64,000 nucleotides of DNA from Bacteroidales bacterium (GTDB lineage Bacteria > Bacteroidota > Bacteroidia > Bacteroidales > UBA3824). Position numbers and translations under genes: made by a program. How positions within the stretch are numbered: the first letter of the stretch is position 1; each line of letters begins with the position of its first letter. The DNA lies in NCBI GenBank assembly GCA_016293845.1, contig JAEDDH010000010.1, positions 4,104 through 68,103 on the forward strand, given 5' to 3'. The notes below the pieces were generated by a model that was not told the DNA's origin, ran no database searches, and worked only from the letters and a program-made list of their open reading frames with translations. Below are positions 1-61,649 of the stretch, piece after piece.

Positions 1-1235
1 TCTGACTTTGTGATAATATCAGCCTTGATGTAAGGTTCTTCGATATGGCTGATGGCTTTTTGTTCGGGCAATCCTGCGGGGTTGTGCACCTCTATCATTT
101 CGCCTTTGGTGGTAAACACCTTATATGAAACGTTTGGCACAGTGGTGATAACGTCCATGTTAAATTCGCGCGAAAGACGCTCTTGCACAATGTCCATGTG
201 CAACATTCCCAAGAATCCGCAGCGGAAACCAAATCCGAGGGCTATCGACGATTCGGGTGTAAAGGTGAGCGATGCGTCGTTGAGTTGCAGTTTTTCGAGC
301 GATGTGCGTAGCTCTTCGTATTCGTCGGTTTCTATTGGGTAAACGCCCGCATACACCATAGGCTTTACTTCGGCAAAACCTTCTATTGCTTTGGTGCATG
401 GGTTTTCTACGTGGGTAATGGTGTCGCCCACTTTTACTTCGGTGGCTTGCTTTATGCCTGAAATTATGTATCCTACGTTTCCGGCAGAGATTTCGGCGCG
501 AGGACGGAGGTTCATTTCGAGTATGCCCACTTCGTCGGCGTTGTACTCTTTTTTGGTGTTTACAAATTTTACGCGATCGTTGGTTTTGAGCGTTCCGTTG
601 TAGATGCGGAAATATGCTATAATGCCGCGGAATGGATTGAACACCGAGTCGAATATCAGCGCTTGCAATGGAGCTTCGGGGTCGCCTTCGGGAGCGGGCA
701 CTTTTTCTATTATAGTGTCTAAGATACGTTCTACGCCTAACCCTGTTTTGCCCGAAGCTTCGATAATTTCTTCGCGTTTGCCGCCGATGAGTTCTATAAT
801 CTGGTCTTTTACCTCTTCGGGTTTTGCGGCGGGCATATCCATCTTGTTGAGCACGGGGATAATTTCGAGGTTGTTTTCGATAGCCATGTACACGTTTGAG
901 ATGGTTTGCGCCTGAATACCCTGTGTGGCGTCAATTACGAGCAGAGCGCCCTCGCAAGCGGCAATGCTCCGGCTCACCTCGTACGAAAAATCCACGTGTC
1001 CGGGAGTGTCGATGAGGTTTAGCACATAGTTTTCGCCATTGTAGCGGTGCTGCATCTGTATAGCGTGACTTTTGATAGTGATGCCGCGTTCGCGTTCCAA
1101 GTCCATATCGTCGAGCACTTGATTGGTGAGGTCTTTTTCGTTGATGGTTTTGGTGTATTGCAGCAGACGGTCGGCGAGAGTGCTCTTGCCGTGGTCGATA
1201 TGCGCTATTATGCAGAAGTTACGAATGTTTTTCAT
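1..1235 (-). CDS. lepA: Elongation factor 4 (LepA), N-terminal part; the 3' end lies beyond the window start
   Basis: Reverse-strand translation from the ATG at 1235-1233 reads [28 protein letters not shown]...[38 protein letters not shown]. These are the G1/G3 translational GTPase motifs in typical LepA order. The ORF is open to position 1, so it is absent from the ORF track. Confidence 0.95.
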
Positions 1236-19408: not shown

Positions 19409-19574
19409 AATTATCTGTATATATGTAAGTTGGTTGATGTTGTGGTTTGCCTTTGCCTAAGCTGTTGTATGCTTACGGCGGTAAGGCAAATTTACAAATA
19501 TTTATGTATAAAACAAATATGAAGATTATTTTTTTTATTTTTTATCTTAATCGGCGTTGTTGCGAGCATTTTTA

Positions 19575-19657
19575 AAGAAAAAACTCCCCGAGTCCTCACG
19601 GATACGGGGAGAAACTTTAAAAATTATGGATTATGACAATATATACGCGATTGACGT
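19575..19657 (-). ncRNA. Candidate short transcript (sRNA or leader) defined by a -7 box and an intrinsic terminator
   Basis: A minus-strand TACCTTTG -7 box lies at 19671-19664. About 55 nt downstream is the hairpin CTCCCCG/CGGGGAG (19611-19584), followed on the minus strand by TTTTTTCTT. Confidence 0.3.
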
Positions 19658-19735
19658 ACGGGGCAAAGGTAAAAAATATTTTTTATCTAAGCACGTTGTT
19701 GGTGATATTTTTTTTATTTTTGTGATGTCAGAATT

Positions 19736-54015: not shown

Positions 54016-54249
54016 ATGAGTATAAAGGATTTTGTACCGGAATTTACCGACGATGAACTGAAAGCCACTGAAGAGACAGACGATTTGATATTCTTCTCAT
54101 ACATAAACGAATGGGACAAAGTGCCTCCGATAGTTAAAAAGCGCATTTGGACAAGACGGATGCTTGCTTGTAAAGAATCGCAAGGCACAATGACACTCGC
54201 TCCTGGATTCTCGTTTGATTCTGATTCTAAGATAAAGCTTTACAATTAG
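54016..54249 (+). CDS. Small acidic protein, putative antitoxin partner of the PIN protein
   Basis: 77 aa. It ends 3 nt before the PIN gene start. I see no recognisable antitoxin fold, so the assignment rests on position only. Confidence 0.35.
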   Translation: MSIKDFVPEFTDDELKATEETDDLIFFSYINEWDKVPPIVKKRIWTRRMLACKESQGTMTLAPGFSFDSDSKIKLYN

Positions 54250-54252
54250 TCT

Positions 54253-54675
54253 ATGGCGCGATATATGATTGACACCAACATCCTCTGTTTTATGATAGAG
54301 GAGGATGATAGGCTTTCAAAAGATGTTAAAGCCATAGTAACCGATTGTGAAAACACACTATTTGTTAGTGCCGAATCAGTTAAAGAACTTGTTGTTGCCC
54401 ATCGTAACAAAAATTTGTTAGCCAACCGATGGAAAACAGCCGATGAACTTGTGAACGCTATCAAGAAACAATATCGTTTTGTAATTCTTCCTGTTGATAT
54501 CAATACTATTCATAGTATGGCAAAACTCGAAATCAATGAGGCTGCCGACCATAAAGACCCGTCAGACCATCTTATTATTGCCCACGCTATAACTATGGGT
54601 ATGCCGTTGATTTCAAACGACAGAAAATTTCCTTTTTACAAAAGTCAGGGATTAGAACTTGTTACGAATTTTTAA
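54253..54675 (+). CDS. PIN-domain (VapC-like) toxin
   Basis: 140 aa. MIDTNIL (first acidic Asp), SAESVKEL (Glu), DPSDHLIIAHA (DP.DR.I.A) and ISNDRKF (last Asp). Confidence 0.8.
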   Translation: MARYMIDTNILCFMIEEDDRLSKDVKAIVTDCENTLFVSAESVKELVVAHRNKNLLANRWKTADELVNAIKKQYRFVILPVDINTIHSMAKLEINEAADHKDPSDHLIIAHAITMGMPLISNDRKFPFYKSQGLELVTNF

Positions 54676-56238: not shown

Positions 56239-56541
56239 ATGGTAAAGCACATTATTCTCTGGCAGTTGAAAGACGAACTCACTGCCGAACAGAAAGCCGA
56301 AGCCAAGGCCGCTATCAAAAACGGTTTGGAAGGCTTGAAGGGCAAAGTTCCCGGATTAAAGGAAATCAAGGTAAACATCAATCCCTTAGCATCATCTAAT
56401 GCCGACGTTATGTTGGATTCGTTGATGGAAAGCGAGGAGGCATTGAAAGGTTACGCCGTTCACCCCGACCACGTGGCTGTGGCTACCGGCATTGTCCGTC
56501 CCAATGTAAAACTCCGCGTTTGTATGGATTACGAGGTGTAA
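56239..56541 (+). CDS. Dabb (stress-responsive alpha/beta barrel) family protein
   Basis: 100 aa. MVKHIILWQLKD...HPDHVAV is typical of Dabb domains. Confidence 0.8.
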   Translation: MVKHIILWQLKDELTAEQKAEAKAAIKNGLEGLKGKVPGLKEIKVNINPLASSNADVMLDSLMESEEALKGYAVHPDHVAVATGIVRPNVKLRVCMDYEV

Positions 56542-56589: not shown

Positions 56590-56597
56590 TACTTTTG
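56590..56597 (+). promoter_or_regulatory. Bacteroides-type -7 box upstream of RNA element A
   Basis: TACTTTTG lies about 65 nt upstream of the first helix of element A. Confidence 0.4.
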
Positions 56598-56662
56598 CAA
56601 AAACATCAACGTATAATTTATGGCATAACAAAAAACATTAACATACGGCATTAACTATTATT

Positions 56663-56878
56663 CGCGTTCAAAACAAAAGCGTAGGAAACTGTTGATTTTG
56701 AAAATCGGATAACAGCGTTTGCGGAGTGTCATTGATACTCTTTCCACTAATCATTTGTTAATGCTCGCAACCATAACGGTGCGGGCTTACAAATTATCTA
56801 TGATTAGTGGACGGAGTTCATCCTACGCTCTCCGTGAACGCGAGTAGATGAAATAAGGCCTGCGCCTTTTTCTTTTTT
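56663..56878 (+). ncRNA. Structured RNA candidate A (unassigned family): nested helices + conserved apical hairpin + terminator
   Basis: P1 CGCGTTCA (56663-70) pairs with TGAACGCG (56835-42). P2 GCGTAGGA (56679-86) pairs with TCCTACGC (56821-28). P3 CCACTAATCAT (56744-54) pairs with ATGATTAGTGG (56800-10). The apical hairpin is GCTCGCA (56763-69) with TGCGGGC (56780-86). The terminator is AAGGC-CTGC-GCCTT plus a T-rich run (56855-56878). There is no ORF. Confidence 0.45.
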
Positions 56879-56918
56879 CTTTCGCGGTATTAGTTCTTGC
56901 TCTTTAATACAGCGAATT

Positions 56919-57146
56919 ATGCACATAGGGCATATCATAGAACAGGAGCTTCAAAAACGCGGCTGCACAAAAACGTGGCTCGCCAAGCAACTCTATTGTC
57001 ATCGTACAAATGTAGGAAACATTCTCAAACGTCAGAGCATCGACACCGAGCAACTATTGAAAATATCTGAGATTCTTGGCGTGGATTTTTTCGTGTATTA
57101 TGTAAATGAATATGAAGACCGTGAAAATAATTCTCGTTTGCGATAA
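56919..57146 (+). CDS. XRE-family helix-turn-helix protein
   Basis: 75 aa. KRGCTKTWLAKQLYCHRTNVGNILKRQSIDTEQLLKISEILGV has the HTH_3/HTH_26 pattern. Confidence 0.7.
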   Translation: MHIGHIIEQELQKRGCTKTWLAKQLYCHRTNVGNILKRQSIDTEQLLKISEILGVDFFVYYVNEYEDRENNSRLR

Positions 57147-60244: not shown

Positions 60245-60475
60245 TGTTAAATCTACTAATTAAAAGCCTGATAGCATCTTTAATTTTGACGGCAAAAGTA
60301 GTTATTTTTTGCTTGATAACGAACGATTGCTAATTTATCTCTTTATTAAGATATATTATATTAAAAATCAATGCTATAATTAAATTTTGAAAAAAAATAT
60401 CAATAAAATAACAAAAAACTTGACTGTGAATCATTATTATCCGTATATTGCAACAATTCAGAAATTGAAATCGAA

Positions 60476-60648
60476 AGAGCGTTTGCTTGGGCTGACTTCC
60501 TGAAATACGACCAAAATTTATCAGTTTAATTGTCAGCACTTGCGAATGCTCGCATCCCTATAAAGGGTGTGGGCTTACTTTGTAGTAATTATTGGGCTTT
60601 GGTCGGCCTTTCAGGAAACTATAAAGATGCACGCATCCTTTCTTTTTT
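60476..60648 (+). ncRNA. Structured RNA candidate B, paralog of element A
   Basis: P1 TTCCTGAAA (60497-505) pairs with TTTCAGGAA (60609-17). P2 CGACCAAA (60508-15) pairs with TTTGGTCG (60598-605). The apical hairpin is GCTCGCA (60548-54), CCCT-ATAA-AGGG, TGTGGGC (60568-74). GATG-CACG-CATC plus a T-rich run lies at 60626-48. It shares AGCGTTTGC and AATGCTCGCA...TGYGGGCTTAC with element A. Confidence 0.45.
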
Positions 60649-60690
60649 AGTTTCTATTTAAAATTATTGTTTAACTAAAAAAGAGAAACT

Positions 60691-61110
60691 ATGGCAAACA
60701 ATGACGATTTTTCCAGTGATTTGTGGAACTTAACTGCCGCTGCTGCGACTCTTGTTCATCCTGTTGCAGGTGTGGCTGTGAAAGGAATCCAATTTATGTA
60801 TAAGCATTTTTCCAGTAGCGACTTTGATGGGAACATTCCAAAAGACCGTATCAGAAACTACCAAGAGCCTGTTCTATCGAAACGAAGACTCGCGGAGATA
60901 TCGAAAGCAAACAAAGTACCCTCTGCAACAGAAGTGTACGCTCGAAAAGAAATGTTACTAGACTCTTACAGCATTACACTCACCTATGGAATTAACGGAG
61001 AACCATTTCCGCCTATGCGGAATAATTTTGTTGTTATTATATCAAAAGAATTAAATAGCGACATTGACTCACTGTTTGGTAATGACGAACTGATAATCAT
61101 AAAAAAATAA
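60691..61110 (+). CDS. Hypothetical protein (no recognisable domain)
   Basis: 139 aa. It starts 43 nt after RNA element B, and the ACP-like gene follows 28 nt downstream. Confidence 0.5.
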   Translation: MANNDDFSSDLWNLTAAAATLVHPVAGVAVKGIQFMYKHFSSSDFDGNIPKDRIRNYQEPVLSKRRLAEISKANKVPSATEVYARKEMLLDSYSITLTYGINGEPFPPMRNNFVVIISKELNSDIDSLFGNDELIIIKK

Positions 61111-61138: not shown

Positions 61139-61402
61139 ATGTCAGATATTAAGAACAAAGTAAAAGAGATTGTTGTCAATCAATTAGGAGTTGACGAGGC
61201 AGAAGTAACAGACGCAGCAAGTTTTACAAATGACTTGGGTGCTGACTGTTTAGATACTGTCGAGTTAGTGATGCAATTCGAAAAGGAGTTTAATATATAT
61301 GCTCCTGATACTGTATGGGAAAGACTCGCCACTGTCGGAGAAGTGGTGGATTATATCGAACGGCAACTGGCACCTGAGGTTAGAGATGAAGGATTTTTGT
61401 AG
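61139..61402 (+). CDS. Acyl carrier protein paralog with Cys in place of the phosphopantetheine-attachment Ser
   Basis: 87 aa. [44 protein letters not shown] aligns with the AcpP core, in which the motif is LGADSLDTVEL. The codon at 61247-61249 is TGT. Confidence 0.8.
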
Positions 61403-61424
61403 TCAACCTTAGTATCAATATCCA

Positions 61425-61639
61425 TTTTTATTGTCCATAAACAATAAAATTAAAAATTTTGCAGATTTGTTATCTATGGACAATAAAAATTGTTTACCAA
61501 ATCTGCAATAAAATCACCACATTTGGTAAACAATTTTTTGTAAAATATTTGTATTTTGTAGATATTCAGTGAGTTGTAGTGTATAAAAATTATTTACCAA
61601 ATCTGTAATAAAATTACCACATTTGGTAAACAATTTTTA
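61425..61639. repeat. Three AT-rich long hairpins; the last two are ~54-bp direct repeats 101 bp apart
   Basis: H1 is TTTTTATTGTCCATA (61425-39) with TATGGACAATAAAAA (61475-89). The R1 copy (61485-61539) is AAAAATTGTTTACCAAATCTGCAATAAAATCACCACATTTGGTAAACAATTTTTT. The R2 copy (61586-61639) is the same with 3 substitutions plus a variant last base. Each contains a 12-13 bp inverted repeat (TTTACCAAAT/ATTTGGTAAA core). Confidence 0.85.
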
Positions 61640-61649
61640 TGGCTCTATA

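Follow-up and report, generated by a model that had tools for sequence, protein, structure and literature searches.

Organization of the Element A Locus

The DNA analyzed here is a stretch of 64,000 nucleotides (nt) from a Bacteroidales bacterium (contig JAEDDH010000010.1 of assembly GCA_016293845.1, positions 4,104 to 68,103), referred to below as the window. Upstream of a small gene for a helix-turn-helix (HTH) protein of the XRE type it has a gap that encodes a real, conserved and highly structured RNA of ruminant-gut Bacteroidales, here termed element A. A preliminary description of the window had listed for this gap a set of nested helices enclosing an apical hairpin, a GC hairpin followed by a T-run, a -7 box upstream and the XRE-HTH gene downstream, and all of these features were found in place. 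It had also called the gap free of open reading frames (ORFs), which agrees with the homologs, where the longest ATG-initiated ORFs comprise 15-39 codons, differ in frame and stop, and are not conserved. The features of the locus are as follows.

56239-56541: Dabb-domain gene upstream of element A, with a terminator of its own
56590-56597, + strand: -7 promoter box TACTTTTG of the Bacteroidetes type (TAnnTTTG), an exact sequence match
56648-56880, + strand: element A
56648-56655, + strand: 5' tail GCAUUAAC, unpaired in the nested fold and invariant in nine of nine sequences
56655-56715, + strand: nascent 5' hairpin, CUAUUAUUCG (56655-64) with CGGAUAACAG (56706-15), inner helix UUCAAAA:UUUUGAA
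56658-56670, + strand: 5' strand of helix P1, UUAUUCGCGUUCA; partner UGAACGCGAGUAG at 56835-56847, 13 bp
56678-56690, + strand: 5' strand of helix P2, AGCGUAGGAAACU; partner at ~56815-56829, 13 pairs
56715-56724, + strand: internal strand GCGUUUGCGG (= GCGTTTGCGG), containing AGCGUU
56744-56754, + strand: 5' strand of helix P3, CCACUAAUCAU (= CCACTAATCAT); partner AUGAUUAGUGG (= ATGATTAGTGG) at 56800-56810
56760-56790, + strand: core hairpin AAU-GCUCGCA-(apical 3-bp helix + loop)-UGCGGGC-UUAC, motif AATGCTCGCA...TGCGGGCTTAC
56778-56788, + strand: 3' half of the core hairpin, GGUGCGGGCUU, complementary to AAGGCCUGCGCC at 56855-56866 directly before the U-run (helix T')
56855-56880, + strand: intrinsic terminator region, local GC hairpin AAGGC-CUGC-GCCUU (56855-68) and U-run
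56919-57146, + strand: XRE-type HTH gene of 75 amino acids (aa), Pfam HTH_26/HTH_3, the constant downstream partner of A-type elements

In element A the three long-range helices P1, P2 and P3 are nested and clamp the core hairpin. Within P1, CGCGTTCA occupies positions 56663-70 with its partner strand at 56834-41, while CCGTGAACGC is found at 56832-41. The minimum free energy (MFE) structure of the plus strand is this nested fold, as the preliminary description had proposed. Its energy is -87 kcal/mol compared to a shuffle mean of -58 kcal/mol (z = -6.5), and none of 200 shuffled sequences folded as well. The reverse strand folds nearly as well (-85 kcal/mol, z = -5.6). The box TACTTTTG upstream of the RNA has the -7 element expected of a sigma-A-type promoter in this phylum.

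The apical motif of element A was said to recur in a second element, B, and one further copy was indeed found, at 60545-78 of the window. By shuffling, the expected number of copies is 0, and a covariance model of the core finds only the copies in A and B.

Conservation and Covariation of the A-Type Elements

Homologs of element A were collected via orthologs of the HTH protein and not via the RNA motif. The HTH protein has 16 homologs with 71-89% identity, and an A-like element was present directly 5' of the HTH gene in every homolog contig fetched. Nine distinct copies were aligned. AAUGCUCGCA and UGCGGGCU were invariant in all nine, while the loop and the 3' flank varied. An exact TAnnTTTG was located 33-82 nt 5' of P1 in eight of the nine copies.

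The structure was scored on a plain MAFFT alignment (A5) that had not been fitted to any structure. RNAalifold predicted P1 (13 bp), P2 (13 bp), P3 (14 bp) and the core (9 bp) in addition to the terminator hairpin. Standard pairs were found in 99% of the 520 pair cells, and the observed values were not reached by any of 500 shuffles. When the structure was slid by 1-3 columns as a control, at most 50% of the cells could pair. Double compensatory changes were found for 10 of the 58 pairs, eight of them in P3 and one each in P1 and P2. All cells were paired in P1, P2 and P3 alike; the double change in P1 is a G-C to A-U replacement (in locus L194), P2 has G-C to A-U double changes in three sequences, and 8 of the 14 pairs of P3 are doubly compensated. 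G-U pairs make up about 10% of the pair cells on the plus strand and would be A-C mismatches on the minus strand. Together with the promoter box, the U-run and the orientation of the downstream gene, these wobbles identify the plus strand as the RNA strand.

The conserved pairing in nine diverged homologs, and the compensatory changes among them (10 pairs, 0/500 shuffles), bear out the earlier claim of a genuine structured RNA on the plus strand. Structure and family alike are firmly supported.

The Core Hairpin Is Complementary to the Terminator

The core hairpin (AAU-GCUCGCA-loop-UGYGGGC-UU, where Y is C or U; ~35 nt) is common to three architectures, namely the A-type, the B-type and the element at locus L110. 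It is made up of a 7-bp stem with a variable loop and has almost no conserved unpaired nucleotides. The loop or spacer between the two core half-sites ranges from 5 to 16 nt.

The 12 nt preceding the U-run were compared with every upstream 12-nt window (84-199 windows per element) in 19 elements. The 3' half of the core was the best partner of this 12-mer in 17 elements, including A-types, B-types and L110. In the remaining two the U-run was mislocated, and the core 3' half pairs at 10-11 of 11 positions there. For element A of the window itself, the core 3' half ranked best among 191 windows. In the A-types the resulting helix T' is formed by GGUGCGGGCUU and AAGGYCUGCRCC (R is A or G; 56778-88/56855-66) with 10-11 of 11 pairs in nine of nine homologs, and the changes observed among A-types are one-sided and compatible with wobble pairing. 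The T' duplex has a predicted energy of -16 to -19 kcal/mol compared to 0 to -11 kcal/mol for the local GC hairpin of the A-types. The local terminator hairpin is weak in the A-types and absent in L181.

Since its 3' half is complementary to the sequence before the U-run, the core hairpin behaves as an antiterminator sharing nucleotides with the hairpin directly before the U-run, the arrangement found in attenuators. On the basis of these complementarities it is best read as an antiterminator, the opening of which would complete the terminator.

Element B and the B-Type Leaders

Element B has the following parts.

60457-60658, + strand: element B, a B-type attenuator, core at 60545-78
60477-86/60542-51 and 60490-96/60532-37, + strand: H1, anti-antiterminator (RNAalifold fold)
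60499-505/60609-15 (Pa), 60508-14/60599-605 (Pb), 60527-31/60587-91 (Pc) and 60545-78 (core), + strand: antiterminator
~60562-86/60618-41, + strand: terminator T, U-run at 60643-48
60691-61110, + strand: ORFan of 139 aa directly downstream of element B, no Pfam or NCBIfam family

Genomes of GTDB and JGI metagenomes were scanned with the exact core pattern for further copies. Among the matches listed, the true ones came only from metagenome-assembled genomes (MAGs) and metagenomes of ruminant-gut Bacteroidales. Three loci (L113, L165, and L180) were near-identical to A and two (L114 and L140) to B. Nine further distinct B-like copies were found, so that the B-type is represented by at least 10 copies, in addition to one different, partial element (L110).

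The B-types were analyzed on an unfitted alignment (A2), with a covariance model (R1) and on a fitted alignment (A4). The antiterminator, in which Pa, Pb and Pc are topped by the core, pairs in 95% of the cells on the unfitted and 96% on the fitted alignment. On the unfitted alignment 11 of 29 pairs were doubly changed. Slid controls paired in no more than 49% of the cells, and none of 500 shuffles reached the covariation score or the percentage of paired cells (1/500 reached the double-change count on the unfitted alignment). The RNAalifold consensus is the alternative fold of H1 and terminator, which pairs in 97% of the cells (slid controls at most 50%) and has three double-change pairs. H1 is formed by GAGCGUUYGY..GGCUGAC and GUCAGC..RCGAAUGCUC and sequesters the 5' half of the core. 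The terminator is a helix of 22 bp with the core 3' half as its 5' strand, and it ends in CCCUUUC-U6. The fold of H1 and terminator is thus backed mainly by conserved pairing with few compensatory changes, whereas the antiterminator is backed by extensive covariation.

Constrained folding gave -50 to -69 kcal/mol for state 1 and -38 to -61 kcal/mol for state 2, i.e., the energies are close. In the nascent transcript up to the 3' strand of the terminator the antiterminator was the MFE structure for 7 of 10 sequences. The two folds exclude each other, and on these predicted energies the B-types appear to be bistable. Two other pairings were considered for B and discarded. A closing helix of GAAAG and CUUUC was dropped for the RNAalifold terminator helix that uses the core 3' half, and pairing of the 5' tail GUUAAAGAC with the downstream TGTTnAAC was inconsistent among copies.

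The promoter boxes of the B-types have one mismatch to TAnnTTTG and are located ~28-31 nt 5' of GAAAGAGCG. An A/T-rich motif, CAAAAAAGTTG...ATTTTT, is common to the B-types ~70-90 nt 5' of the RNA. The sequence TGTT[T/A/G]AAC is conserved in B-type loci 20-45 nt after the U-run (60668-60675 in the window) and marks the 3' limit of a conserved promoter-plus-leader module, beyond which sequences and ORFs are unrelated. GGCUGAC is repeated directly after the terminator in four B-type copies.

Alternative Pairings in Element A

The preliminary description had likened element A to riboswitches and attenuators, where one strand has two alternative partners. The resemblance to an attenuator held; the particular either/or pairing proposed did not. 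This pairing, of 56715-24 with 56832-41 as an alternative to P1, was possible in 72% of the cells across the nine homologs and without any double changes. The first six base pairs of this helix persist because both strands are conserved, and the last four are broken in most homologs. When P1 changes from G-C to A-U in L194, the internal strand does not follow.

The competition that the alignments do back is the one between the core hairpin and the stretch before the U-run, which its 3' half can pair with. Three further pairings can compete in A. The 5' tail GCAUUAAC is perfectly complementary to GUUAAUGC (56757-56764), which covers the 5' flank of the core and its beginning, with eight of eight pairs in nine of nine sequences, and is a candidate anti-antiterminator strand. 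The AGCGUU of the internal strand pairs with AAUGCU at the core 5' flank in 53 of 54 cells. Read from the sequences, the internal strand of A aligns with the B-type anti-antiterminator strand GAGCGUUYGY. When only the first ~72 nt are folded, the 5' hairpin (CU[A/G]UUAUUCG with CGGAUAA[U/C]CAG) is the MFE structure in nine of nine homologs. It has one A-U to G-C switch (ACUAUU/AAUCAG compared to ACUGUU/AACCAG) and occupies the 5' strand of P1, and hence competes with P1.

Searches for Known Families and Further Copies

No match was found in the window by cmscan against Rfam 15 at the gathering threshold, nothing overlapped A or B between 56000 and 61800 at E<=10, and in ten homologous loci searched at E<=5 the elements were likewise free of matches. 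The earlier statement that A belongs to no riboswitch or small RNA (sRNA) family thus agrees with Rfam 15. Nothing of this kind was found described in full-text literature searches. Plasmids and phages gave nothing relevant in BLASTN searches with A and B, and motif scans of viral contigs gave chance matches only.

With a core model (R2), nothing turned up beyond the two copies in the window and one in each of the other loci fetched. An exact match of 12 nt to the 5' half of the core, AAUGCUCGCAAC at 19559-19570 on the minus strand, was rejected as a third copy as it is without the 3' half. This match lies directly after a terminator-like hairpin, CUCCCCG...CGGGGAG with a U-run (context 19590-19672, minus strand), which follows a promoter-like box TACCTTTG and may represent a small RNA gene of ~85 nt.

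Gene Context

The upstream neighbors of the A-types vary and include Dabb, AAA-ATPase/PDDEXK_9, seryl-tRNA synthetase and Na/H antiporter genes, which indicates that the A-type element travels with the HTH operon. In every one of 20 loci a gene on the same strand starts 40-85 nt 3' of the U-run. The genes 3' of HTH in A-type loci encode small lipoproteins or outer membrane protein (OMP) barrels, with a DUF6175 gene in some lineages. In the window the operon comprises HTH and proteins of 150 aa, 171 aa (OMP beta-barrel-like) and 195 aa, i.e., small envelope-type proteins. The operon of L185, L186, L187, L188, L189, and L190 encodes HTH followed by proteins of 163 aa, 191 aa, 151 aa, DUF6175 (~318 aa) and 309 aa; except for DUF6175 the proteins downstream of HTH have no Pfam or NCBIfam family.

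The genes downstream of B-types are unrelated to each other. They encode lipoproteins without a Pfam match, a Cys-rich DnaJ-finger protein, Sel1-repeat proteins and a lipoprotein/caspase/Sel1 cluster. For the 139-aa ORFan downstream of element B, a search of 5.8 billion proteins returned just two homologs. Downstream of the L110 element lies a gene for a giant protein of more than 1,290 aa. Searches of Pfam, NCBIfam and PDB with the downstream proteins gave nothing informative. Genes near the elements include Abi_2, Schlafen-AlbA_2/Fic, ATPase_2/AAA_14 and BspA-LRR, which suggests that the neighborhoods are variable genomic regions. Some genomes carry more than one element: MAG JAFPZK01 has both an A-type (L181) and a B-type (L116), and MAG JAGCDD01 has two B copies (L123 and L125).

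A Model for Element A

Element A most likely acts as an on/off switch, governed by some signal, for the genes that follow it. We consider it somewhat probable that it serves the HTH operon as a cis-acting leader in which the core hairpin competes with the terminator, the balance being set by a factor that is most likely a protein. Element A would then belong to a family of transcription attenuators that act in cis as 5' leader RNAs and occur in uncultured Bacteroidales of the ruminant gut. Throughout the family a closed core hairpin would block the strong terminator helix and let RNA polymerase read into the downstream gene, while in the open state its 3' half would complete the terminator.

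In element A, P1, P2 and P3 would clamp the core hairpin shut, and the 5' tail GCAUUAAC and the internal AGCGUU would act as anti-antiterminators by pairing with the core 5' flank. Transcription presumably starts just 3' of TACTTTTG, so the 5' hairpin would form first and compete with P1. Refolding to the nested structure of P1-P3 and core would give read-through into the HTH operon, and in the alternative fold pairing of 56778-88 with 56855-66 would stop transcription at ~56875. That termination is the regulated step in A, the direction of the switch and the nature of the effector are all inferred here, unlike the structure, its conservation, the family and the complementarity of core 3' half and terminator, which the sequences show. 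The sequence of the hairpin is invariant on three scaffolds while its loop is free to vary, and this suggests a trans-acting factor that reads the hairpin, most likely an RNA-binding protein like PyrR or those that bind ribonucleic antiterminator (RAT) hairpins.

Several observations weigh against this model. The 5' tail pairing is invariant, as is most of T', so covariation cannot prove these helices. The nested fold of A is 18-27 kcal/mol below a fold in which the 5' tail helix and T' are enforced. Element A is therefore not thermodynamically bistable as B appears to be, any switch in A has to be kinetic or driven by a factor, and element A may be an 'on by default' variant. The invariance of the B-type core is circular because the copies were retrieved with the exact core pattern; the sequence outside the core is independent evidence. 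The family is small, with at least ~20 distinct sequences, all from MAGs and metagenomes of related uncultured lineages, and no candidate effector was found. Finally, a near-consensus promoter-like sequence similar to TAGTTTTG, [TC][AG]GTT[TC]{1,2}TGC, is present 19-26 nt 5' of the HTH start codon in all A-types. The HTH gene may therefore be transcribed from a promoter of its own, and A would then be a separate sRNA gene.

Alternative Explanations

This last point leads to the alternative that has to be taken most seriously, although we regard it as rather unlikely: A could be a stand-alone RNA of ~220-280 nt that acts in trans or sequesters a protein and is syntenic with a separately promoted HTH operon, with the hairpin as protein-binding or decoy site and P1 protecting the paired ends. 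Element A does have its own exact -7 box and its own terminator, and its extremely stable nested fold pairs the 5' and 3' ends. As the same hairpin is found in B-type leaders, A could conceivably titrate their factor. The second promoter box is exact only in one clade (L181/L185/L187), where TAnnTTTG occurs between the terminator and the HTH start. Moreover, the local terminator is weak or missing and yet the helix of core 3' half and terminator is conserved, which is hard to explain for a constitutively terminated RNA, and orientation and spacing relative to the downstream gene are constant at all 20 loci. That A and B are riboswitches sensing a metabolite or an ion, with an aptamer in the region of the core hairpin and a ligand shifting the antiterminator/terminator balance, we consider improbable. 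The bistable terminator/antiterminator/anti-antiterminator folds of the B-types, the very high sequence conservation around the core and the lack of an Rfam match would suit such a reading, but what the three architectures have in common is no more than a plain 7-bp stem whose loop varies, and the conservation beside the core of B is explained by dual pairing. The ORFans, lipoproteins, HTH and caspase/Sel1 proteins encoded downstream have no metabolic theme; a set this diverse speaks against a metabolite riboswitch controlling a coherent regulon and fits a regulon read by a common factor. Neither a conserved ligand pocket nor a coherent set of regulated genes was found.

A third possibility, attenuation by a ribosome that initiates or stalls at a leader ORF starting with the AUG-CUC-GCA of the core and thereby opens the hairpin and frees its 3' half, seems very improbable to us. 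This sequence is indeed found at the base of the hairpin in 20 of 20 elements, followed by 4-29 sense codons, but neither the length of the ORF nor its frame or stop position is conserved, and a leader peptide was rejected on this ground. Start sites of Bacteroidetes are typically preceded by an A-rich, unstructured context, unlike the UUGUUA and UGCGA found here; both folds leave the AUG partly paired, and the chance of an AUG within the invariant 10-mer is ~12%. Least probable of all, to the point of being hard to maintain, is an element acting at the level of DNA, i.e., a protein operator, a mobile repeat like a miniature inverted-repeat transposable element or a site resembling integron attC. 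It would account for the core being an imperfect DNA palindrome beside an HTH gene, for the near-equal folding of the reverse strand of A and for a B-type module that precedes unrelated genes and in which the conserved part ends near GTTRAAC, resembling an attC R' box. This GTTRAAC-like motif is found only 3' of the B-types, with no RYYYAAC partner at the 5' end. The half-site spacing is variable, the observed variation preserves G-U wobbles on the plus strand only, and no integrase or transposase was seen beside the elements, for which reasons both the operator and the attC readings were rejected. In addition, promoter box and U-run are on one strand with a fixed orientation to the downstream genes, the window has two copies in 64 kb and each other locus one, and plasmids, phages and viral contigs gave no matches.

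Comparison with Known Leader RNAs

The attenuator model for A and B can be compared with several known systems. RAT hairpins, which are bound by BglG, SacY, and LicT, are short imperfect leader hairpins that overlap the terminator 3' of them, and stabilization of the hairpin prevents formation of the terminator (PMC5393181, PMC12591593). The A/B hairpin likewise lies in a 5' leader with its 3' part overlapping the terminator, and several leaders within a single genome carry it. It differs in being embedded in large covarying scaffolds (P1-P3 or Pa-Pc), in having anti-antiterminator strands and in preceding ORFans or an HTH operon rather than sugar-utilization genes, in the phylum Bacteroidota. 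No CAT-PRD protein or phosphotransferase system context is evident near A and B, and no CAT domain was found in the 10 neighboring proteins of the window that were scanned. The RAT sequence, which we take to contain ...UUGUUACUGC...GCAGGCAA..., loosely resembles UUGUUAAUGC...GCGGGCUUACAA of A, and we treat this as a lead only; the core presumably departs from the RAT consensus.

In PyrR-type attenuators the terminator can form once the 5' strand of the antiterminator is captured by a segment upstream of it (PMC4347634). The B-type has exactly this three-layer arrangement of terminator, antiterminator and anti-antiterminator, but the PyrR binding-loop sequence and pyrimidine genes are missing from A and B, and the B-type antiterminator is a multi-helix hairpin of ~110 nt. 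With the expression platforms of riboswitches the elements have in common that mutually exclusive conserved folds decide on the terminator, that the leader is located 5' of a gene and that paralogous copies occur within a genome. They differ from them in having no recognizable aptamer, Rfam match or coherent gene functions, as the shared part is a small stem with a variable loop. Lambda nut boxB and HK022 put are also small conserved hairpins of nascent RNA at variable distance 5' of terminators, and the core hairpin could similarly recruit or modify the transcription machinery. Their hairpin does not overlap the terminator, whereas in A, B and L110 the hairpin can pair through its 3' half directly with a terminator strand. 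That this holds for all three architectures argues for structural competition rather than processive antitermination.

Altogether, terminator/antiterminator leader RNAs are a known kind of regulator; the family described here, its invariant hairpin on three scaffolds and the set of genes it precedes are new to Rfam and to the literature searched.

Other Features of the Window and Related Loci

Downstream of element B and the 139-aa ORFan an acyl carrier protein (ACP)-like gene is located at 61139-61402 on the plus strand, assigned as ACP by NCBIfam. It is without the serine to which phosphopantetheine is attached (DLGADCLD in the window, DLGADGLD in L114 and L140), and the product therefore cannot be a canonical holo-ACP. 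Two direct repeats of 56 nt, 95% identical, lie between this gene and ilvD (61483-61538 and 61583-61638). Each folds into a hairpin whose arms are 21 nt and whose loop is 12 nt long, and a further inverted repeat of 25 nt is found at 61424-61490. Rfam gave only weak, noise-level matches to miRNA models for the repeats at 61424-61640.

In locus L152 an Acido-Lenti-1 RNA (RF01687; 42.7 bits compared to a gathering threshold of 37) was found at 1763-1808 on the plus strand, ~210 nt 5' of the B-type element and beside a Schlafen-AlbA_2/Fic-like gene. Just 5' of the arabinofuranosidase gene of the window, at 54016-54675 on the plus strand, an ORF of 77 aa precedes one of 140 aa. Their counterparts in the equivalent locus L180 are a gene of 77 aa and a PIN-domain gene, and judged by this correspondence the pair is likely a VapBC-type toxin-antitoxin system.

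Implications for the Ruminant-Gut Bacteroidales

Little is known of how leader RNAs regulate transcription termination in Bacteroidota, least of all in those uncultured lineages of the ruminant gut which dominate fiber digestion. The family offers very clean covariation support together with a simple proposed mechanism in which one hairpin competes with a terminator, and the covariance models built here can be used for RNA family databases and for the annotation of Bacteroidales MAGs. We tentatively propose, as a possibility somewhat short of even, that a portable antiterminator hairpin of ~35 nt, read by one factor, defines a regulon of ruminant-gut Bacteroidales. At least three unrelated scaffolds would have evolved around this hairpin, coupling the XRE-HTH/envelope operon and many ORFans, in regions that are variable or resemble defense islands, to one signal. 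Such a factor might be an antiterminator or repressor of a new RNA-binding kind and, with lower probability, a ligand, and the invariant hairpin could serve as bait for it. The putative common regulon would join many unannotated ORFans with the HTH/envelope operon and thereby provide a handle on their function.

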